The translations under genes were made by a program, and so were the position numbers. Below are positions 53,085-64,000 of a stretch of DNA of 64,000 nt, in pieces (within the stretch, counting starts at the first letter, position 1; every line of letters starts with the position of its first letter). The stretch is taken from the NCBI GenBank assembly GCA_965261395.1, contig OZ253462.1, positions 2,912,001 through 2,976,000 on the forward strand. Direction: 5' to 3'. This DNA comes from Candidatus Latescibacterota bacterium. GTDB lineage: Bacteria > Latescibacterota > UBA2968 > UBA8231. The notes beneath the pieces were generated by a model. It did no database searches. It was not told the origin of the DNA and was given only the letters and a program-made list of their open reading frames with translations.

Positions 53085-53316
53085 TTACTTTTAAATAAAC
53101 AAATCATTGTTTTTTAAGGACATTTGCCTTCGTTGAGCGGCGGGATGCACGTTGCAATAAAATAAAGTTTGCGCCAAAAGTCCAAATCGCCCTGCCGGTA
53201 GCCGAGCGTTTTGTGGATGGCTGCGGCTTGGCACGACAACTCGGATCACACTGCGACCAAGCCGTTATAAAATGCGGAGAAAATCAATTGTCAAACGAAA
53301 GAATGATTTTGCCACC

Positions 53317-56300
53317 CGGCTCATCCCCGCGTGTGCGGGAACATATTGCAGAGAGTCGCGGCGTAACAACTTCACCCGGCTCATCCCCGCGTGTGCGGGG
53401 AACATTTAATAGTTTGCCACATAATGTGGTTAACTAGCGGCTCATCCCCGCGTGTGCGGGGAACATACAATGTGAAATCTACGCTGGGGCACCGCATCCG
53501 GTTCATCCCCGCGTGTGCGGGGAACATCACCATTCGCAGATCGTAGTCGTTCACGCTAACGGTTCATCCCCGCGTGTGCGGGGAACATCAGGTTCATCGG
53601 ATATAGAGCGCCAGCGGCGACGGTTCATCCCCGCGTGTGCGGGGAACATTTGGTAGGCAACCCCCCATCATTGGACCAGGCCGGTTCATCCCCGCGTGTG
53701 CGGGGAACATATGCTGATGCTGGCGAGGGCGAAGGGGTTCATCCCCGCGTGTGCGGGGAACATCTCGACAAGGCCCGCGACCGGTCAGCCAAGACCGGTT
53801 CATCCCCGCGTGTGCGGGGAACATATGGTGGAGGTCATAGTCACCCTCTCCAAGCTCGGTTCATCCCCGCGTGTGCGGGGAACATTTGCAGATGTTGACG
53901 GGTGCATAATGCGTATCCGGTTCATCCCCGCGTGTGCGGGGAACATGATGTAAATTTCCTGTGTCGCGCGCCGTCTGCCGGTTCATCCCCGCGTGTGCGG
54001 GGAACATTTCACGCAGGCGGCCAAAGAAGGCAACGTCCGCGGTTCATCCCCGCGTGTGCGGGGAACATTCCCTGGTCTGCCGAACCGAATCGCTAAAATC
54101 CGGTTCATCCCCGCGTGTGCGGGGAACATATTAACGCTCATAGCATCCAGCCCCACCACGCCGGTTCATCCCCGCGTGTGCGGGGAACATGGGGTCAGAA
54201 TACCCATCAGGATATTTCCTTTCGGTTCATCCCCGCGTGTGCGGGGAACATCGCCCCAAGTGGTGCATCATGCACACCAAGGTCGGTTCATCCCCGCGTG
54301 TGCGGGGAACATTGCTCAATCCAAGTCGAACCCGATCTTTCGAGCGGTTCATCCCCGCGTGTGCGGGGAACATCGGCCTCAGTCCCTCTACAATAACATG
54401 ACCATCGGTTCATCCCCGCGTGTGCGGGGAACATCAACAGCTCGAAGACCTCATCGTCAGACAACTCGGTTCATCCCCGCGTGTGCGGGGAACATTGGTG
54501 GTGGTGGCCCTCCGCCGCCGATGTAAACGGTTCATCCCCGCGTGTGCGGGGAACATAGATTATGTATATATCGGCGCAACATCTACGCCGGTTCATCCCC
54601 GCGTGTGCGGGGAACATACCATGGCAACGCAAAACGTATTTCAGATCATCGGTTCATCCCCGCGTGTGCGGGGAACATCCACTTCGGTTTTTTTGAACGC
54701 GAAGGCTTCCCGGTTCATCCCCGCGTGTGCGGGGAACATCCACTTCGGTTTCTTCGAACGCGAGGGTTTTCCGGTTCATCCCCGCGTGTGCGGGGAACAT
54801 ACGACCTAGGATACAATTACAACTCAGCCGGCCGGTTCATCCCCGCGTGTGCGGGGAACATCAAGTCTCAGCCGAGCCCCATTTCTTCTCAGACGGTTCA
54901 TCCCCGCGTGTGCGGGGAACATAAAAACTCGCCTTTTTTGATCGCGTTGAACGCCGGTTCATCCCCGCGTGTGCGGGGAACATAAGCTCGGCCCCATGAC
55001 GTTGCGGTACTCTAACGGTTCATCCCCGCGTGTGCGGGGAACATCTGGGGCTTGAGCCTATGTCGGGGTCGCTTATCGGTTCATCCCCGCGTGTGCGGGG
55101 AACATTCGCAATGCCTTATTGCTTTGCGCGTCAACGTCGGTTCATCCCCGCGTGTGCGGGGAACATCTCCCTGTCGTCAAGGTGAAACAAGGTGCGACCG
55201 GTTCATCCCCGCGTGTGCGGGGAACATTTCGCGCAAGCCCTTTGCCGCTTCTGCGATCTCGGTTCATCCCCGCGTGTGCGGGGAACATTTCGTCAAAGCC
55301 TTTATGCTCGCCCGCAAAGCCGGTTCATCCCCGCGTGTGCGGGGAACATATGCTTGTAACCTTCTGAATGAGGTTGCAAGGCGGTTCATCCCCGCGTGTG
55401 CGGGGAACATTTCCCTATCGAGCAACAGCAGAGAATCAAAGTCGGTTCATCCCCGCGTGTGCGGGGAACATATCTCCTTCTTGACCGCGCTCGCGTCGAT
55501 GTCCGGTTCATCCCCGCGTGTGCGGGGAACATTTCGCATCTGAGCGCGTCCAGCACAAATTTCCCGGTTCATCCCCGCGTGTGCGGGGAACATTTTCGTC
55601 AAAGCCTTTATGCTCGCGTCGATGTCCGGTTCATCCCCGCGTGTGCGGGGAACATATGCAAGCAACCTGCTGAATGAGGTTGCAAGGCGGTTCATCCCCG
55701 CGTGTGCGGGGAACATCTATTGTATTGATTGTATTGAAACGCGAAACACGGTTCATCCCCGCGTGTGCGGGGAACATTAGGGTCAGTATCCTGCGAAGCG
55801 ATGCAATCCTGGTTCATCCCCGCGTGTGCGGGGAACATAAGCAACTGACGTATTGTATTGACGCGAAACACGGTTCATCCCCGCGTGTGCGGGGAACATT
55901 GTAAAGGAATCGCTCGCCGACTCGCTGCCGACGGTTCATCCCCGCGTGTGCGGGGAACATATCGCCAGTCAATGCAGTCCGGTAGAGTCAAGCGGTTCAT
56001 CCCCGCGTGTGCGGGGAACATACGGCGAAACTGCTCGACACCTATGTCGATAGCGGTTCATCCCCGCGTGTGCGGGGAACATACGCCGGGACAATCCGGC
56101 AAAACGCTTTACCACGGTTCATCCCCGCGTGTGCGGGGAACATATACAGATCAGATCAGATCAGATCAGATCAGCCGGTTCATCCCCGCGTGTGCGGGGA
56201 ACATTTTAAAATAGTGGTGGAAAGTGCTTGACAATGCGGTTCATCCCCGCGTGTGCGGGGAACATAAAAGGCCAGCGGTTAAAATTTAACTATTGACCGG

Positions 56301-57424
56301 TTCATCCCCGCGTGTGCGGGGAACATGTTTAACTCCCCTCACGGGAGGAGCCTATCACCGGTTCATCCCCGCGTGTGCGGGGAACATGCGCGCTCGGGGC
56401 TTTTCTCGATGCGCGTTTTCGGTTCATCCCCGCGTGTGCGGGGAACATAGGTAGGCCGTGTACGGCCCGGTTGCCGATACCGGTTCATCCCCGCGTGTGC
56501 GGGGAACATCGGTTTAACTGCCATTGCTGGCAGCCCATCACCGGTTCATCCCCGCGTGTGCGGGGAACATTGCGATAGGGAGCGCGTTTATTGTGCGTGT
56601 TACGGTTCATCCCCGCGTGTGCGGGGAACATTCTCAATTATTGCTTGTGTTGGTATCGGCTACCGGTTCATCCCCGCGTGTGCGGGGAACATCGGTTTAA
56701 CTCCCGTCGCCGGGAGCCCATCACCGGTTCATCCCCGCGTGTGCGGGGAACATTTCTGCAAAGCCTTTATGCTCGTCCTCAGGGCCGGTTCATCCCCGCG
56801 TGTGCGGGGAACATTGTAAAGGAAACGCCCGCCGGCTCGTCGCCGACGGTTCATCCCCGCGTGTGCGGGGAACATTCCGGTTGGAACAAGGTAGGTTTTT
56901 CCTGCTACGGTTCATCCCCGCGTGTGCGGGGAACATGTGTGGGCTGAACTTTGGATCAGCCCGTGCGGCGGTTCATCCCCGCGTGTGCGGGGAACATCCT
57001 TGTGAGTGTGCTGCGTTTCCTGGGCTGAGCGGTTCATCCCCGCGTGTGCGGGGAACATAATATCGGCCAGCTTGGCCGATACAATGTTCGCGGTTCATCC
57101 CCGCGTGTGCGGGGAACATTGAGCAACTTCGGCAATCAGCAAGGCAAGGGCCGGTTCATCCCCGCGTGTGCGGGGAACATCCTCTATCGTCAAGTATCTC
57201 TGGGTGCTGCGTCGGTTCATCCCCGCGTGTGCGGGGAACATCGGGTGCTAATGGCGTTGAATAGTGCGAGTAGCGGTTCATCCCCGCGTGTGCGGGGAAC
57301 ATCTGGTATTCTTCGTCCAGGTGTTTGCGAGCATCGGTTCATCCCCGCGTGTGCGGGGAACATAATACCCGCACTCACATGAGGTAAATTTCAATCGGTT
57401 CATCCCCGCGTGTGCGGGGAACAT
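53317..57424 (-). CRISPR. Type I-E CRISPR array, 68 repeats/67 spacers, repeat ATGTTCCCCGCACACGCGGGGATGAACCG
   Basis: 29 bp repeat, 61 bp period, mostly 32 bp spacers; degenerate repeats at the 53317 end, leader next to cas2; counted by eye. Confidence 0.98.
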
Positions 57425-57529
57425 ACTTAATCGTAACTGCTTGCTACAGTTTAGGTTATATGCCATGCAAAATAGCTACCGACTATTTGACCCCCGATTC
57501 ACCCACTCCACATATGCCGAGAACATACT
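57425..57529 (-). promoter_or_regulatory. CRISPR leader
   Basis: AT-richer non-coding segment between cas2 stop and first repeat. Confidence 0.75.
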
Positions 57530-57808
57530 TCACTCAGGCAAAAAAGATACGAGTCGAAGACCGTCAAAATCCACAGGTATCCGGCGGTTTGTGCCAAAGG
57601 TTTCAAACTCAAACCCCGCGTCATTGGGGGCGGCCCAAGCAATCACAGCATCACCGTCGCCGATGAGCTCGCACACATTGTCGCGGATCATAGCGCGGGT
57701 CTTTGCCGAGTAGTTGCCGATATAGACACCGGCTCGAAGTTCCAGAAGCCAAACCGCGAGCCGGCCCCGCAGGCGCGGCGGCACATTATTAGTCACCACT
57801 ATCATCAT
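57530..57808 (-). CDS. cas2: Type I-E Cas2
   Basis: VPPRLRGRLAVWLLELRAGVYIG, PVDFDGLRLVSF. Confidence 0.96.
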   Translation of the reverse strand: MMIVVTNNVPPRLRGRLAVWLLELRAGVYIGNYSAKTRAMIRDNVCELIGDGDAVIAWAAPNDAGFEFETFGTNRRIPVDFDGLRLVSFLPE

Positions 57809-58752
57809 CCTCGATGGCCCTCATCTCCGCTTGAAGGTGGATCGGCAAAGGCCGGGCCTACCGCATCATCTGGCATTTTCGGCGGCGGCAACTCGCCCGC
57901 TGCGAGCACTTCTCCGATGGTTGGAATCAGTCGCCTGAGCAGCTTGGTTCTGCGGAACGTGTCCCGACACGCCAAGCGCACTTCGCGCACAGGCTCGGCA
58001 GAACGCCCCTTCGCGTGCTGTCCCGCAATGCGAAACGCTGTCGGCACCGCCGTCTCAAATTTGAATAAATCGGCAATGTCGTACACAAAGGAGAGGGGTT
58101 TACCAGTATGCAAGAAGCCGACTGCTGGGGCATATCCAGCCGCGAGCACGGCGGCTTCCGTAATGCCGTAGAGGCAGGCAGTTGCTGCCGAGAGGCAGCG
58201 GTTGGGCACATCGGAGAAGTTCCAATCCGAAGGATCGTAGCTGCGCCTTTTCCACTGTACTCCAAACTGCCGCGCCAAATTCTCATAAAGCGCACGTACA
58301 CGCGCCCCCTCAATTCCGCGAAGCTGTTCGACAGAACGGCGTTGCGGCGCTCGCTCGTCAAATCGGATTTGATACATCCGCCGCACGATCTTCAGCCGAG
58401 CGTCGGGGTCAAGCGCGAGGCGGCACTGCCACAGAAGCCTGTCGGACCGGGCACCTCCCGGCTGACCAGCCGCGTATAGGCGCACCCCGGCTTCACCGAC
58501 CCATATCAGCAAAGTACCGACCCGTGCGGCGAGTGCCACTGCAGCATGACTGACCCGCGCACCAGGTTCGAGCATGATGCAAGCCAACCCGCCAACGGGG
58601 ATGTGCGTCCGCACCCCCTTTACATCTACGAGCACAAAAGCTCCATCGAGTACGTCGAGTTGGCCCTTCTCCACAAAAACGATAGAGGTGCGGTCCTTTA
58701 TGGGGATCGGCTTGGGGGGCGGAGCACCCGGCATTCTGTCAGGGCTAGCCAT
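57805..58752 (-). CDS. cas1: Type I-E Cas1
   Basis: MLEPGARVSHAA, GEAGVRLY, LRGIEG, GFLHTGKPLSFVYDIAD. Confidence 0.97.
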   Translation of the reverse strand: MASPDRMPGAPPPKPIPIKDRTSIVFVEKGQLDVLDGAFVLVDVKGVRTHIPVGGLACIMLEPGARVSHAAVALAARVGTLLIWVGEAGVRLYAAGQPGGARSDRLLWQCRLALDPDARLKIVRRMYQIRFDERAPQRRSVEQLRGIEGARVRALYENLARQFGVQWKRRSYDPSDWNFSDVPNRCLSAATACLYGITEAAVLAAGYAPAVGFLHTGKPLSFVYDIADLFKFETAVPTAFRIAGQHAKGRSAEPVREVRLACRDTFRRTKLLRRLIPTIGEVLAAGELPPPKMPDDAVGPAFADPPSSGDEGHRG

Positions 58753-58775
58753 CAAGCGATCCTGCGTATAAGCGA

Positions 58776-58865
58776 TGGTTCATCCCCGCATGTGCGGGGA
58801 ACACAGAGGTAGTCATCAGGCGATCCTGCGCATGAGTGGGTCATCCTCGCGTGTGCGGGGAACAT
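58776..58865 (-). CRISPR. Mini-array (2 repeats, 32 nt spacer) at the cas6e/cas1 junction
   Basis: Repeats at 58776-58804 and 58837-58865; flanked by duplicated CTGCGTATAAGC. Confidence 0.92.
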
Positions 58866-59608
58866 CTGCGTATAAGCATCAGGCCGCAGCCAAATGCCTT
58901 GCCGCGCCCGAATCCCTGCCGAAGGCGGGCGAGAAACGAGTTAGGCTCGGTTATGGTCAAAGCACCTTTGAGGTCGAATATGCCCAAAGTGCCGAATTTC
59001 CCACCGCGCCGTGCGAAACGCTCGGCTCGATAGCCTTCGAGCATCAGTGCGTCAAGGCAGAATCCGTATGCTTCGGCCCGCGCCGCTAGCCAGTCGTAGG
59101 CCGCCTTTTTGGCAAACTGCATCCGATACTTGGCGCGGTTGAGGGATTCATCCCCGCGTGTGCGGGGAACATTCTTGAGCAAGTCCATGGCCACATCGCA
59201 GCGTTGCCGTATGGCCGGTTCATTCCCGTGTGTGCGAGAAACTTTCCGATCGACCGTGGCGTTAAGGCGCAGATCGAACGCCAGCCGGTCTCCTGGCGAG
59301 AGTGTCGGCTCGAAGGGCTTCGTCTCGATAGCGAAGAAGGGAGAGTCTTCCAAAGGCTTGGGGCCGAGAAGATAGTACCGCCCGCGCTGGCGGTCGGCCC
59401 GCCAAAGAAACGCGGATTTCGGCGTACCGGCAGTCCGGCTCTGCTCTACCTCAGTACGCACATTTGGCGGGATGACCGTCCAGATCAGCCGGTGATCTAC
59501 CGCGAGGCGGTCAGACGACTTTGATGGCTGAAGGACCTGTAGCAGGGGAGCTATGTCTGCGGCGTCGCGCCGGAGCGTAAGACGCGAAAAGTGGAGTGGC
59601 TCACTCAT
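58841..59608 (-). CDS. cas6e: Cas6e (Cse3) crRNA endoribonuclease
   Basis: HRLIW, LAFDLRLNAT, C-terminal GFGRGKAFGCGL G-loop. Confidence 0.95.
   Translation of the reverse strand: MSEPLHFSRLTLRRDAADIAPLLQVLQPSKSSDRLAVDHRLIWTVIPPNVRTEVEQSRTAGTPKSAFLWRADRQRGRYYLLGPKPLEDSPFFAIETKPFEPTLSPGDRLAFDLRLNATVDRKVSRTHGNEPAIRQRCDVAMDLLKNVPRTRGDESLNRAKYRMQFAKKAAYDWLAARAEAYGFCLDALMLEGYRAERFARRGGKFGTLGIFDLKGALTITEPNSFLARLRQGFGRGKAFGCGLMLIRRCSPHTRG
59144..59244 (-). CRISPR. Two CRISPR repeats embedded in frame within cas6e
   Basis: 59144-59172 matches consensus 27/29, 59216-59244 matches 24/29. Confidence 0.88.
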
Positions 59609-60321
59609 TGCGAAGCCTCCTCTTGGTCAGTGGGAACGTATTCGTATTCGCGCCGTTGCCCGAACTGCCAGCTCGTGCGGTCGCCCGGCTCGTCCATCCG
59701 CAGTCGCATCCGCAAGGAAGCATCGAGAGGACCGAGGTCCGCCCGATCCTCCACGGCGATTAGGCCATTCGGCCCATCGCTATGGCGCTTGAACGCATCA
59801 ACGACCGTTTGTGCTTCAATGATCTCCGGCGCGAGTGGGTGGGACAGTGGGCAGGACTTGCGCCCTAAATACAATGTATAAGCTGGCTTCTCAAACCCAG
59901 CTTTGAGGTCCCGCAACGAGTATCGTCCGCCCGATATGGCTCGGTAAGCCGCCTGATAGCGCACATCTGTGCGGTACTCTCGGTGGGTGATACTCGTCGC
60001 AAGGTCCAAGGGATGGGAAAGTGCCTCCGCTCTAGTTCGGGGATGTCCCTTGGCCGAAGGCAGCGACTGGTAAGTGTGAAAATCCGTCACCAACGTCCCG
60101 GCGCACAGGGTGCGAGTAGCGACGCGGAAAGAGGCAGCAAGCGCCCGCTGCCCTTCCGCATCGGCGCGATCAATACCCAGCGCCGCGCCCGCCATCCCCA
60201 AAAGGGCAGATCGCGTTGGACGGTCGGCCGTGCCACGCCGCACATTGCCTGCCTCTTCGCCGAAGCTGGCAAAGGGTGCGGCCAAGGTAATAATTAACCA
60301 TTTCCTCGGTTCACCATTCAT
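59605..60321 (-). CDS. cas5e: Cas5e
   Basis: APFASFG, PTRSALLGMAGAALG, DFHT, LYLGRKSCP. Confidence 0.95.
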   Translation of the reverse strand: MNGEPRKWLIITLAAPFASFGEEAGNVRRGTADRPTRSALLGMAGAALGIDRADAEGQRALAASFRVATRTLCAGTLVTDFHTYQSLPSAKGHPRTRAEALSHPLDLATSITHREYRTDVRYQAAYRAISGGRYSLRDLKAGFEKPAYTLYLGRKSCPLSHPLAPEIIEAQTVVDAFKRHSDGPNGLIAVEDRADLGPLDASLRMRLRMDEPGDRTSWQFGQRREYEYVPTDQEEASQ

Positions 60322-60353
60322 TTTAGTCCCTTCGGGAATATATGTGGTTCGTG

Positions 60354-60443
60354 CGGTTCGTCCCCGCGGATACGGGGAACATCCTACGTGTAGTTGGATG
60401 TCGTCGCTTCAATCCGGTTCATCCCCGCAGGTGCGGGGAACGT
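60354..60443 (-). CRISPR. Mini-array (2 diverged repeats, 32 nt spacer) between cas7 and cas5
   Basis: Repeats at 60354-60382 and 60415-60443 with intact stems. Confidence 0.9.
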
Positions 60444-60462
60444 TTTGCCAAATAGCAAATTG

Positions 60463-61521
60463 CTACAGTTCCTCCGCTGCGAAGGCGGCTAGCTCCTCCA
60501 ACATGGCACTATCCTCTTCACCTACATGGAGTTCGCTGGCTTCCCAATCGTCGTCGTAGGTCTTCGCAAAGGCGGTACGCTGCTTCTTGAGTACCTTTAC
60601 GGACTCCCCGAGTTGGTCTTCCGATTTTACCGGCTTGGTGAAGGCACTAGCCAAGCTGCGAGGTTGGCTATCCCCGCGCTCTAACAACATGTATTCGGCG
60701 CGTACGTGATTGGCGAAGCTGTTTTTCTTACCGGAAGGCGATGCGGTCGCCGCAGCGCGTACTAGCGCGGAGAGCGCACGGCCTGCCAGTTCTGTATCGC
60801 TCGCAAGATTTTCCAGCAGCAGGACCCTATTTACGCAGATGTAGAGATAGAAGACGCCAGCGCCGAAACCCGCCTCTCCGATGAAACCCGCGCCCGCATC
60901 CTCTTCTGGGGTCTTCAGATCGTCAACAGCCGTGTAGTAGTCATCTTCAATATCGACTCGGTTGGTGGTAAAGGCATGAGCCACTTGCACGGCGGCATCG
61001 CGGTTGAAGTCGGGGTTGTCAGCCAACATGCGCCCGAACATAGCAATGTCCACGGCACCGTCGGCAGTGCTTAGGACCTGTTTCGCCAGTTCCTTTTCCT
61101 TCGGTAAGGTTTCCCCGCTCAGTGCCTTTTCTGCCAAATCGAATGCAGCAGCGCGTTCCTCCGGCGAGATGAAGGCTAGCTGTTCGGTATAGGCCGGATT
61201 TGGGTCTTTCTCATTCTTTACTTTACCGAACAGAGCAGCGATGGTCCGGGCGATTTCGAGCGCCTTGTCCTCCGAAGCACCCTTTTCTAGCAGATGCTCT
61301 CGCACCTTGTCGCCCATACGCTGCGTGCGCTCGCCTAGCTTTCCCGTTAGGGCGGACCGGAAAGCGTCGTCCGTGCGGATGGCGCGTTTGAGGGCTTGGC
61401 TGGAAATGCGCATCCGCGACACACCGCCGATGAAAGCGGTCTTGGGACGGCCGAGGTCGTCTCGGTTGGGGTTAGACGGTGGATAGGCTGTCAGAACGTG
61501 CATTTGCACAAAGCGGCTCAT
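60463..61521 (-). CDS. cas7: Cas7 (Cse4)
   Basis: PSNPNRDDLGRPK, RISSQALKR, DIAMFGRMLA, DYYTAVDD. Confidence 0.97.
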   Translation of the reverse strand: MSRFVQMHVLTAYPPSNPNRDDLGRPKTAFIGGVSRMRISSQALKRAIRTDDAFRSALTGKLGERTQRMGDKVREHLLEKGASEDKALEIARTIAALFGKVKNEKDPNPAYTEQLAFISPEERAAAFDLAEKALSGETLPKEKELAKQVLSTADGAVDIAMFGRMLADNPDFNRDAAVQVAHAFTTNRVDIEDDYYTAVDDLKTPEEDAGAGFIGEAGFGAGVFYLYICVNRVLLLENLASDTELAGRALSALVRAAATASPSGKKNSFANHVRAEYMLLERGDSQPRSLASAFTKPVKSEDQLGESVKVLKKQRTAFAKTYDDDWEASELHVGEEDSAMLEELAAFAAEEL

Positions 61522-62090
61522 AGTTGAGTCTCCTCTTGGGGTTGGGTGTTCTCTGCGGCATCGGTCCGCCGCGTGTGATAGTAATCAAAGGTCCATTTCT
61601 GCCGAGTCTGGTCGTTAAAGAAAAGCACATCGCCGATAAAGCGAGGAACGTCGAATGGCGCATCGCCCAAAATAGCAAGGGTCCGGCGCAGTGCCCGTGC
61701 GAACATGTCCACATCAGTGCCATCCTTGAGCAGGTTGCTGAAGCGCATGGGCGACAGGCGTGGACGGGCGTCGCCTTTGGGGATGGAACCATCCCACGTG
61801 AGGCCCAAGGCGTCAGCGAAGGGGGGGAGATGGGCGGTCCTCTCGGAGGGTTTAACCCGCGCAAGGGCCATAGCCAGCACGGCGAGGCGCTGCTCAAGCG
61901 CGTGGCCGGCGGTAGCCTTTTCATGCACACTGGCGATCAACCTGTGGGTTTCTGGCTCTAAGAGGGCGTCGAATACGCTTTCGCAGCGCTTCAGCCGCGC
62001 CCGTGCACCCCGGTCTCCGTGGTCCGCGTGAAGCGATACCCACCAGTTCACCACTGCATTGACGGTAGGGTTATTTCGGTTGAGCTGCAT
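61518..62090 (-). CDS. cse2: Cas11 (Cse2) small subunit
   Basis: DRGARARLKR, LSPMRF, W..DYY; position in operon. Confidence 0.9.
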   Translation of the reverse strand: MQLNRNNPTVNAVVNWWVSLHADHGDRGARARLKRCESVFDALLEPETHRLIASVHEKATAGHALEQRLAVLAMALARVKPSERTAHLPPFADALGLTWDGSIPKGDARPRLSPMRFSNLLKDGTDVDMFARALRRTLAILGDAPFDVPRFIGDVLFFNDQTRQKWTFDYYHTRRTDAAENTQPQEETQL

Positions 62091-63748
62091 TAAGCGGTCT
62101 CCTTTTTGGTTTTGGATTTTTTCTCTGGCAAAGGAAGTTCGAGCTTGTCGTAAAGCGACTTGCTCTGCTTGGTCCAGCCAGCAAAGGTTGCGTTCAAGAT
62201 GCCGTAGGCATTGACGATTGTCTTGGCCTTCTCGGCGTCTTGCAAGGGCACGGGTGCCAGTCGGTCAAAAGTCGCAAGGGCTGCGCGGCGCATGATACCT
62301 AGCCAGTGCCGTGCGAGAGCGGTCTGGTCGAAGCCCCCATCTTCGGGCATTTCTTGGAGCAGATCGTCGAGCAGGTGGTGGAATTGGTCCTCGGTTGCGT
62401 CGAAGAAATCAGCCCGCGCTTGGTCGAGAATCCCCTTATCGTTTGAGGCATTCTTCTGGCCGCTGAAAAGTGCCTTTTTCAAGGCTGTTAACAACTGAGA
62501 AACCGCTTGATCGGCGGCTTCGGAGAAATGTCGGGCGAGATCGTCGAGAGCCTGTTGTTGATCGGATGTATTCGCCAGATGCAAAGGCTCCTCGGCGATG
62601 AGATAGGCGATTGCTTCCATGTTGTTCATGGCCCAACCGCCAACGCGGATGCGAGCATCGGCCGCTTGTTTATTCTGGCTAAGGGAATGGGAGCGATTAT
62701 TCTTGGAGAGCTTGATATTTGTGGGCTGTTCAGCCAGCTTGCCATCCTTGCTCCCTACCGTGACGGCAACCCAGTCTCGATAGCCAAAGCGTCCTGATTT
62801 TGGCTTGGCCGAATACGGCTCCCCTGCCTCTTTCAGGCGGCGGTAGGGCGTCAGCGGATGCTGCCATAGCCCATAATTTGTGCCGTAGGGCCTCTGGATA
62901 AATCCGGTGACCAGCGGTTCTTTTCTGCCGGTCATGGAGCAGATGCCCGGCTCGCTGGAAAAGACTAGCTGGATGCGGCGCGGCATACCGAAATACGCCT
63001 GCAAGGGGTGGGCGTCTGCTAGAGATACAGTACGACTTTTTTCCGATGTGAGTGTCGGGGCCATCCAAGGCAGGGCCTTGGGCAACTCATCTATTGGGAG
63101 TCGTTTATCGCAAGGCACCACATTGGCGAAAATTTTGTGCCACAAAGGCACGGGCGTTGCATCGTCATTAGTCGCCGGAACGACCAGTGCCGTCAAAGGC
63201 CCGCCTCCACGCATGGAAGTGCGGTTCCCGGCACCGCCGGCCGGCGCGTAGGCTTGCAGGGTGTACAGCGTCATGGCCGCAGCCGGTAGGCCAAGGGCAG
63301 CATAGCGGTTGCGGTGAGTCAATAGGTCCGAGTTTTTGCGCTGGCCGTTTTGCCCTGGTGTGTCGATGAGCAGTAGTTCAATAGGAGTTTCGTTGCCTTG
63401 CAGGGGCTCATAGTCCTGTAGGAAGCGCGGCCCTTCGCCGTTGAGATAGAAGGCAGAAACAAGAGGGGCGAGCTTTTCGGCGAGCGCGTCTCTATCCGGC
63501 GGATTGGTCCAAAAAGGACGCCAGTCGTCCTCTTCGCGGATATCGAAGGCCAACGAAATCACGCCGATGCAGAACTCGAAGCTCGCCATGTTGAAATCCG
63601 GGCGCGGCCAGTTAAACTCGACCGGGTAGTCTTCATCCAAGCCGTTGCTTTTGGGTCCAGCCACTAGTTCGGGAAAGGCAAGCCATCTCTGTGCTCCAGA
63701 TCGCATGACGACCGGGAGAAAGGGATCACTGAGCAGATTAAAAGTCAT
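62090..63748 (-). CDS. cas8e: Cas8e (Cse1) large subunit
   Basis: FNLLSDPFLPV, PRPDF, F.L.GEGPRFLQD, APAGGAG..MRGGGP, MPRRI, HPLTPY. Confidence 0.95.
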   Translation of the reverse strand: MTFNLLSDPFLPVVMRSGAQRWLAFPELVAGPKSNGLDEDYPVEFNWPRPDFNMASFEFCIGVISLAFDIREEDDWRPFWTNPPDRDALAEKLAPLVSAFYLNGEGPRFLQDYEPLQGNETPIELLLIDTPGQNGQRKNSDLLTHRNRYAALGLPAAAMTLYTLQAYAPAGGAGNRTSMRGGGPLTALVVPATNDDATPVPLWHKIFANVVPCDKRLPIDELPKALPWMAPTLTSEKSRTVSLADAHPLQAYFGMPRRIQLVFSSEPGICSMTGRKEPLVTGFIQRPYGTNYGLWQHPLTPYRRLKEAGEPYSAKPKSGRFGYRDWVAVTVGSKDGKLAEQPTNIKLSKNNRSHSLSQNKQAADARIRVGGWAMNNMEAIAYLIAEEPLHLANTSDQQQALDDLARHFSEAADQAVSQLLTALKKALFSGQKNASNDKGILDQARADFFDATEDQFHHLLDDLLQEMPEDGGFDQTALARHWLGIMRRAALATFDRLAPVPLQDAEKAKTIVNAYGILNATFAGWTKQSKSLYDKLELPLPEKKSKTKKETA

Positions 63749-63792
63749 TGATATCTCCTTAAAATATATAACTAACCAACAGCTTACTACAT

Positions 63793-63821
63793 ACTCTAAA
63801 GAGGCAATCGTACCTTGTCAA
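63793..63821 (-). promoter_or_regulatory. Predicted cascade operon promoter TTGACA-17-TAGAGT
   Basis: Consensus -35 at 63821-63816, -10 at 63798-63793, AAGGAG RBS at 63760-63755. Confidence 0.75.
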
Positions 63822-63842
63822 GGGCAAGTTGCGGTCCATCAT

Positions 63843-63919
63843 TAATTAATCCCCGTGTGTACGGGGAACACGTTAGCCGACAGCATACTACGGCTCATTC
63901 CCGCGTCTGCGGGACAACA
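63843..63919 (-). ncRNA. crRNA-like regulatory RNA (CreR-type mini-array) with 19 nt spacer targeting the cas8e promoter
   Basis: Two diverged repeats with compensatory stems; spacer matches 63771-63789 with ATG PAM. Confidence 0.85.
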
Positions 63920-64000
63920 AATCTAAAGCCCAGTCGGGCACAGTACATAAAATAACCGTCATCCTTCGCCCCTTCCAATCGCACCCTACTGCCCCCTTCT

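Follow-up and report, generated by a model that had tools for sequence, protein, structure and literature searches.

Repeat-like elements in cas loci, among them the degenerate mini-CRISPRs CreR and CreA and other mini-arrays, are recognised as regulators (Liu et al. 2023, bioRxiv 10.1101/2023.03.10.532045; Shmakov et al. 2023, bioRxiv 10.1101/2023.03.03.530964; Cheng et al. 2021, PMC8501985). As outlined in these reports, the surveys covered intergenic space only, and that of Shmakov et al. dropped matches overlapping open reading frames (ORFs). Here we describe two copies of the CRISPR repeat, R1 and R2, inside the cas6e gene of a complete type I-E system, which occupies the end of the 64-kb window (the whole stretch of contig OZ253462.1, from a Candidatus Latescibacterota bacterium, that was analysed) on the minus strand (Table 1). 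Like the CreR/CreA elements, R1 and R2 form a sense-oriented, repeat-like pair within a cas locus, their spacing of 43 nt falls within the published 15-60 bp, and the handle-forming parts are kept. As these sources portray them, the known elements are intergenic and non-coding and act through the binding of Cascade to promoters, whereas R1, R2 and the gap between them are translated as Cas6e and the action proposed here is cleavage of RNA by Cas6e. The published type also has a promoter-proximal spacer target next to a protospacer adjacent motif (PAM). The 43-nt coding segment has no such target in this genome, whereas a mini-array upstream of cse1 has one and corresponds to the textbook I-E CreR type within the same locus.

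Phage solitary repeat units, or RNA anti-CRISPRs, are a second described system of this kind (Camara-Wilpert et al. 2023, PMC10651486). As described there, they too are single repeat copies outside an array, bound by Cas6 and other Cas proteins, which they divert; they are viral, non-coding and directed against the host system, whereas the copies studied here lie in the host's own cas6e. RNase III (rnc leader) and RNase E (rne 5' untranslated region) have been shown experimentally to cut their own mRNAs, at sites in untranslated leaders, and engineered Cas6f/Csy4 hairpins are used to cut mRNAs. The likeness to the self-cutting RNases is that the recognition hairpin of the enzyme lies in its own transcript, with potential for negative feedback; unlike in those cases, the predicted site here is inside the reading frame. 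The protein itself shares its Pfam family, two-domain fold and glycine-rich loop with canonical Cas6e (Cse3 of Thermus thermophilus, CasE of Escherichia coli), but copies of its own substrate code for two of its loops and for its C-terminal tail. The author of the original prediction knew of no repeats within a cas6 coding sequence, and our literature search likewise found no such report in the papers that it covered; supplementary files of Shmakov et al. and of Liu et al. may list loci of this clade or ORF-overlapping matches. Regulators of the repeat-like kind are already known from cas loci; the apparent novelty lies in the placement of the copies within the cas6e coding sequence and in the self-cleavage that this implies.

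Two repeat copies in the cas6e reading frame

The array is transcribed from the minus strand, and its repeat in sense orientation is ATGTTCCCCGCACACGCGGGGATGAACCG. In R1 (sense strand, 59172 to 59144: ATGTTCCCCGCACACGCGGGGATGAATCC) mismatches to this repeat are confined to repeat positions 27 and 29, and positions 1-26, which hold the hairpin, the cleavage site and 5 nt past the cleavage site, are identical. R2 (sense strand, 59244 to 59216: AAGTTTCTCGCACACACGGGAATGAACCG) is mismatched at repeat positions 2, 6, 8, 16 and 21, and its final 8 nt (ATGAACCG) equal the canonical 5' handle (8/8). Both copies are in sense orientation (the pre-crRNA strand; crRNA, CRISPR RNA) and in one common frame of the cas6e ORF of 255 amino acids. 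R2 encodes VSRTHGNEP (Cas6e residues 123-131) and R1 encodes NVPRTRGDES (residues 146-155). The 43-nt gap between them is native cas6e sequence encoding AIRQRCDVAMDLLK, and is conserved in relatives without the repeats. The original prediction had already placed the copies in sense and in frame on either side of an RCDVAMDLL segment, and we find the same arrangement. The array repeat has two open frames (MFPAHAGMN and VPRTRGDEP) and one that contains a stop (CSPHTRG, then the stop codon); R1 and R2 both use the hydrophilic open frame, VPRTRGDEP.

The expected number of chance matches at up to three mismatches, estimated from the shuffled window, is 0.00. Across both strands of the whole 6.55-Mb genome, the copies outside the array at up to seven mismatches occupy seven sites, all in the cas operon. 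An eighth shows up at eight mismatches, and all eight are sense-oriented and in the cas operon. Both copies in cas6e are real, but the six further copies in the operon had been missed when the pair was taken for a special device of cas6e, and the distribution points instead to an operon in which its own repeat has been captured time and again. An Rfam scan of 57300-64000 (E up to 1) returned no CRISPR-repeat family and one chance match to a long non-coding RNA, and is uninformative.

The predicted fold energy of R1 equals that of the array repeat (-14.3 kcal/mol each), and sequence and fold together confirm the 27/29 identity and intact stem reported for this copy. For R2 (-5.3 kcal/mol), the 24/29 identity, the compensatory U-A at pair 6-21 and the G-U at pair 8-19 had been correctly described. 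The description had left out a C/A mismatch at pair 11-16, which closes the loop, and the stem is weak. The fold energy of R2 was matched by 24 of 200 shuffles, so that retention of the hairpin is marginal for R2 and clear for R1. Both hairpins survive in a fold of the 191-nt context.

On balance, we favour the reading that R1 and R2 are genuine copies of the locus's own repeat, carried as tolerated scars that drift, with self-cleavage as a consequence and not as a demonstrable design. If expressed, Cas6e is likely to bind the mRNA of its own operon and to cut it at 59152/59151, within R1, because the hairpin, scissile site and fold energy of R1 equal those of the array repeat. The sense operon mRNA would carry this perfect Cas6e site, the weak site R2 and two intergenic mini-arrays, whose four repeats would be cut as well. 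Cas6e would cut its polycistronic message after repeat position 21, which agrees with the cut positions near 59151 and 59223 given in the original prediction; cutting at R2 would be weaker, if it occurs at all, given its fold energy and the mismatch that closes its loop. A promoter scan detected a single promoter-like site on the sense strand, upstream of cse1, and none from there to cas2; cas1-cas2 therefore probably share the transcript of the cse1 promoter.

Such cutting would truncate the template of Cas6e, leaving a non-stop 5' cas6e fragment, and would physically separate the mRNA of the Cascade genes from that of cas1-cas2, with an effect on cas1-cas2 for which the sequence allows either sign. 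One Cas6e would also be sequestered per site; according to a review, Cas6e remains on its product, with an affinity in the sub-nanomolar or low-nanomolar range (PMC3727216). We infer this cleavage, its extent in translated RNA and any feedback from a locus in which sequence, frame, hairpins, loops, ancestry and decay are observed. If Cas6e does cut, the whole cas operon mRNA would be a Cas6e substrate at up to six sites, and a post-transcriptional layer would connect the load of crRNA, the supply of Cascade and the adaptation genes. The earlier proposal that Cas6e may cut its own mRNA is sound as biochemistry, judging by the 26-nt identity of R1 and its hairpin in context, but there is no sign that a feedback has been selected, and R2 is weak.

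As far as sequence and model can tell, Cas6e is intact despite the insertions, because the copies lie in length-variable surface loops and in a stop-free frame. The protein matches Pfam PF08798 with 117.2 bits (cut-off 25) over profile positions 2-223 of 223, and its AlphaFold2 model has a pLDDT (predicted local distance difference test) of 89. The model is predicted to have the double ferredoxin-like fold of Cas6e, and the top Foldseek matches are 3qrp, 2y9h and 2y8w (T. thermophilus Cse3) and 5cd4 and 4tvx (E. coli CasE), with probability 1.00 and target-normalised TM (template modelling) scores of 0.67-0.76 for these Cse3/CasE structures. Close to the C-terminus is the glycine-rich loop GFGRGKAFGCGL, which pairs with GVGPGKALGLGL of 1wj9/2y8w in the structural alignments and is invariant in an alignment of 30 Cas6e proteins (A1). 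H39 is invariant in 30/30 homologues of this alignment, and by conservation it is the candidate for the catalytic histidine that E. coli and T. thermophilus have in the N-terminal domain, the PDB alignments covering other parts of the protein. All 40 invariant columns of A1 are preserved.

Members of this subfamily have about 243 amino acids. The protein of the source genome is 12 longer, with one extra codon at R2, six at R1 and five in the C-terminal tail. In A1, the R1 and R2 sites are the indel-rich spots of the region, and most relatives read KVG-VDSQGKA at the R2 site and LLKEEAK--PDRAG at the R1 site; R2 stands in place of their native loop VGVDSQGK. In the model, the R2 peptide forms the turn between strands 118-124 and 133-138, and the R1 peptide lies in the loop 146-157 between helices 139-145 and 158-178. 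Residues 125-132 and 146-157 are outside secondary structure, with local confidence of 66-80. The alignment with homologues that the original prediction had suggested as a check thus has the repeat-coded peptides replacing length-variable surface loops. Evidently a CRISPR repeat can sit, translated and tolerated, in the coding sequence of the very nuclease by which it is recognised.

That cas6e was inactivated by the insertions, or that array sequence was misassembled into it, is a highly improbable explanation. Some observations lean towards it: one related allele, P0037, stops soon after R1, by deletion or assembly collapse, another, P0041, is frameshifted, and the contigs of public run X6 bridge R2 and break at R1. 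Inactivation, which the original prediction had named as a refuting case, is at odds with the open frame of 255 amino acids, the full-length Pfam match, the confident model and the invariant columns kept, and this is the sole Cas6e of the genome, beside a homogeneous array of 68 repeats. As for misassembly, R1, R2 and their flanks are bridged by contigs of three public runs from three studies (X2 record 17, X11 record 4 and X18 record 11), with 0, 0 and 1 differences, although one of the runs may have a link to the source sample. The same insertions occur in independent assemblies (L001 and P0002-P0004). An assembly chimera, the other refuting case named, is very unlikely because contigs of other runs span both copies with their flanks. 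Depth spikes over R1 and over R3, another copy in the operon, were rejected as signs of deletions, since contigs of arrays from this or other organisms land on the repeat sequence; joints from 58799-58864 to 59140-59151 with 28-40 other letters between were rejected for the same reason.

Ancestry and decay of the copies

The closest genomes are metagenome-assembled genomes labelled Candidatus Latescibacterota. In one related locus, L001, cas6e carries both copies. By hand count, R2 of the source genome and R2 of L001 share four derived changes and the R1 copies share one, and because of these shared changes the insertions are placed before the split from L001. R2 looks older than R1. A strict motif scan for repeat-coded peptides detected them in 6 of 121 proteins, and P0002, P0003, P0004, P0037 and P0041 carry them at the R1/R2 sites (P0002, P0003, P0037 and P0041 were compared as proteins only). 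P0002 has R2 only. P0003 and P0004, the latter being the L001 protein, have both in decayed form, and P0037 and P0041 have both in near-canonical form. Most relatives in the Cas6e subfamily lack both copies, and among the 105 loci with a detectable array, out of 161 examined, repeat copies at up to 22% mismatch inside cas6e occur in the source genome only. A scan of metagenomes added one more close locus, L081, without repeats in cas6e.

Both cas6e copies of L001 have lost their stems. Changes specific to L001 affect 13 of the 58 repeat positions (22%), compared with 20-24% at its third codon positions, and changes specific to the source genome affect 2 of 58, compared with 5.5-8% at third positions. 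Under equal rates, the asymmetry of 2 to 13 looked like constraint (P = 0.004). We rejected this, since the rest of the gene has 18-26 changes in the source genome and 66-77 in L001, a branch three to four times longer, and given such unequal branches the split is not unusual (P = 0.16-0.44). The rate of change in R1 and R2 of the source genome is no different from that in the rest of cas6e. The repeats of L001 changed at a rate like that of third codon positions; these counts thus give no indication that selection acts on the RNA in L001, and they resolve no signal in the source genome.

These data bear directly on selected autoregulation, the reading in which the repeats are kept in the coding sequence for a negative feedback in which free Cas6e is gauged against the load of pre-crRNA and by which cas1-cas2 are tuned. 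It would be favoured by the perfect, sense-oriented site in R1, which is near-canonical in three alleles (P0001, P0037 and P0041), by the intact inner halves of R2 and R1, and by the other sense repeat elements of the operon, of which the CreR element at the promoter is a recognisable regulator and the cas7-cas5 mini-array is conserved. The stemless copies of L001 with their third-position rate of change, the decayed peptides of P0003, the lack of R1 in P0002, the absence of both copies from most subfamily relatives, their presence in only 1 of 105 array-bearing loci and the weak hairpin of R2 make it unlikely. We rank the tolerated scar first because copies in relatives have decayed, most of the clade has none and R2 is weak.

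Several points weigh against this ranking. All seven mismatches of R1 and R2 fall in parts that would be lost from a crRNA-like product, and the perfection of both the R2 handle (8/8) and the hairpin part of R1 (21/21) has a probability of about 0.005 in a post hoc test, which hints at constraint in the lineage of the source genome. R1 is near-canonical in P0037 and P0041, and repeated capture at several sites of the operon could point to selection. Ribosomes translating cas6e may keep the hairpin open, which bears on the cleavage itself. As for the route of copying, off-target integration by Cas1-Cas2 is not supported, as R1 and R2 lack a target-site duplication and the loops were replaced and not inserted into, and a microhomology (G[A/G]GGAAG against GGGGATG) is at most suggestive.

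For the tolerated scars that we favour, the history would be as follows. First R2 and then R1 would have been transferred from the array into cas6e in an ancestor common to a small set of Latescibacterota-type type I-E loci; illegitimate recombination or gene conversion is the probable route. Both would have come to lie in length-variable surface loops and in a frame of the repeat without a stop, of which there are two, and would persist as in-frame scars free to drift. Two other sources likewise found no support: a self-targeting spacer still in the array, since no spacer matches the genome beyond chance-level short hits, and microhomology between the leader end and the junction, of which none was seen.

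Direct repeats within an operon would be expected to invite deletions. P0037 is a 97%-identical Cas6e allele of 173 amino acids in which R1 is followed by about 32 unrelated nucleotides (about ten codons), the repeat-coded CSPHTRG and a stop, a form that may be explained by deletion of the DNA from R1 to an array repeat or by a collapsed assembly. P0041 reads R1 in the third frame (FPAHAGMN) and has a right flank of the type seen in alleles without repeats, which suggests recombination among alleles or sequencing errors. The relatives form a natural series at the same sites (intact, decaying and absent) that could be used to study the seeding of array repeats and the hazard of recombination.

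A possible crRNA-like unit in cas6e

Cuts at R2 and R1 would free a 72-nt RNA with a canonical 8-nt handle, a 43-nt guide and a canonical 21-nt hairpin, which raises the question of a crRNA-like gene within the coding sequence, its RNA either loaded into Cascade or simply titrating Cas proteins in the manner of solitary repeat units. Loaded into Cascade, it would spare the resident copy by virtue of its repeat flank (CCG) and target repeat-free alleles with an AAG PAM. The perfect inner handle and hairpin parts are in line with such a unit, and the 43-nt spacing agrees with the 15-60 bp by which Shmakov et al. define mini-arrays. Of ten relatives' loci, four have AAG and four have AAA before the segment homologous to the 43-nt gap. 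The AAG, a lysine codon, directly precedes this segment in the repeat-free loci L002, L005, L008 and L081, exactly at the position where R2 ends; the L008 segment differs at 4 of 43 positions (6, 27, 34 and 43) and its seed is intact. At the cas6e-cas1 junction, the spacer of a further mini-array begins right after ATG in 10/10 relatives' junctions (L001-L009 and L081). We take AAG to be the canonical E. coli type I-E PAM and assume the E. coli PAM set for this system.

We nevertheless consider such a gene quite improbable. The weak R2 hairpin makes 5' processing doubtful, 43 nt does not correspond to 32 + 6n, and the elements decay in L001. As a guide, the 43-nt segment gave only self-matches and chance-level seed hits in this genome, and since it is conserved coding sequence, matches to relatives are expected anyway; the reading of their flanks as PAMs also depends on the set assumed from E. 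coli. More improbable still is the full version, in which the cas6e pair would be a working crRNA-like gene in a protein-coding frame, whose excision as a 72-nt RNA would throttle Cas6e, uncouple cas1-cas2 and arm Cascade against the repeat-free AAG alleles of related strains, defending the locus against replacement by a rival type I-E system, with the cas6e-cas1 mini-array acting likewise. The upstream AAG/ATG pattern also fits a past choice of these spacers by the adaptation machinery, followed by their return, together with their repeats, to the homologous site.

The type I-E locus and its other repeat copies

Table 1. Features of the type I-E locus in the window, in order of transcription
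Feature	Position	Strand	Description
cas3	stop at 63895, runs past window end	minus	927 amino acids, HD and helicase domains
CreR-type degenerate mini-array	63843-63919	minus	psi-repeat 63891-63919, 19-nt spacer 63872-63890, psi-repeat 63843-63871
cse1 promoter-like site	63793-63821	minus	TTGACA-17-TAGAGT
cse1	62090-63748	minus	
cse2	61518-62090	minus	
cas7	60463-61521	minus	
cas7-cas5 mini-array	60354-60443	minus	repeat 60415-60443, 32-nt spacer 60383-60414, repeat 60354-60382
cas5	59605-60321	minus	
cas6e	58841-59608	minus	255 amino acids; PF08798
R2	59216-59244	minus	24/29 to array repeat; weakened hairpin
R2-R1 gap	59173-59215	minus	43 nt, native cas6e
R1	59144-59172	minus	27/29 to array repeat; full hairpin
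R4	58837-58865	minus	26/29, one stem mismatch; overlaps cas6e end
cas6e-cas1 mini-array spacer	58805-58836	minus	32 nt
R3	58776-58804	minus	26/29; hairpin intact, -14.4 kcal/mol
native cas6e-end/cas1-start	58741-58772	minus	ancestral stop/start overlap TGATG; resembles mini-array spacer
cas1	57805-58752	minus	ATG at 58752
cas2	57530-57808	minus	
main type I-E array	53316-57424	minus	68 repeats (terminal repeat degenerate), 67 spacers

The cas6e stop overlaps the cas1 start in all relatives. In the source genome, the two are separated by a 104-nt insertion relative to all relatives, made up of R4, the 32-nt spacer, R3 and 11 duplicated nt of the junction (58741-58876). R4 encodes the Cas6e tail CSPHTRG and the stop codon (58841-58843), and a repeat-coded tail is present in P0002, P0005, P0015 and P0037. 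Upstream of R4, a partial copy consisting of ATG and 11 nt remains. The spacer matches the native junction just downstream at 26/32 positions and the L002-type junction also at 26/32, and it has the look of a junction copied from another allele. TCG, which is not a PAM, stands before the resident look-alike, which also differs at seed position 3. The mismatches of this spacer at positions 3, 6, 18, 24, 28 and 30 were considered as an instance of the sixth-position rule of Cascade, which we rejected, as third codon positions and allelic differences explain them equally.

The cas7-cas5 mini-array lies in a 141-nt intergenic gap and has both hairpins intact. Its spacer is conserved at 29-30/32 positions in the corresponding mini-arrays of L002 (5175-5264), L003 (5175-5264) and L007 (5142-5231), and no target above chance-level seed matches was found for it in the genome. 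The spacer of the CreR-type mini-array matches 63789-63771 at 14/19 positions (mismatches at 6, 12, 15, 18 and 19), and this partial target follows an ATG PAM directly behind the -10 box of the cse1 promoter-like site. The element is conserved in L002 and L003 and altered in L001, where the site has three repeats with a related 19-nt spacer and a 32-nt spacer. The cas3 frame ends in the first psi-repeat, which it overlaps at 63895-63919, with a tail ending in VVPQTRE before the stop. R4 and this psi-repeat, both at gene ends, use the stop-containing frame of the repeat. Repeats can thus supply the stop codons of cas3 and cas6e.

The leader is located between cas2 and the main array, and cas3 and cas1-cas2 are intact beside the uniform array of 68 repeats. 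None of its spacers matches the genome above chance-level short hits. Five pairs of spacers are near-duplicates with 4-6 differences each (10/25, 11/35, 12/15, 29/34 and 44/45, numbered from the leader), which suggests that spacers were acquired more than once from variant forms of the same targets. The spacer between the repeats at 53682 and 53735 has just 24 nt.

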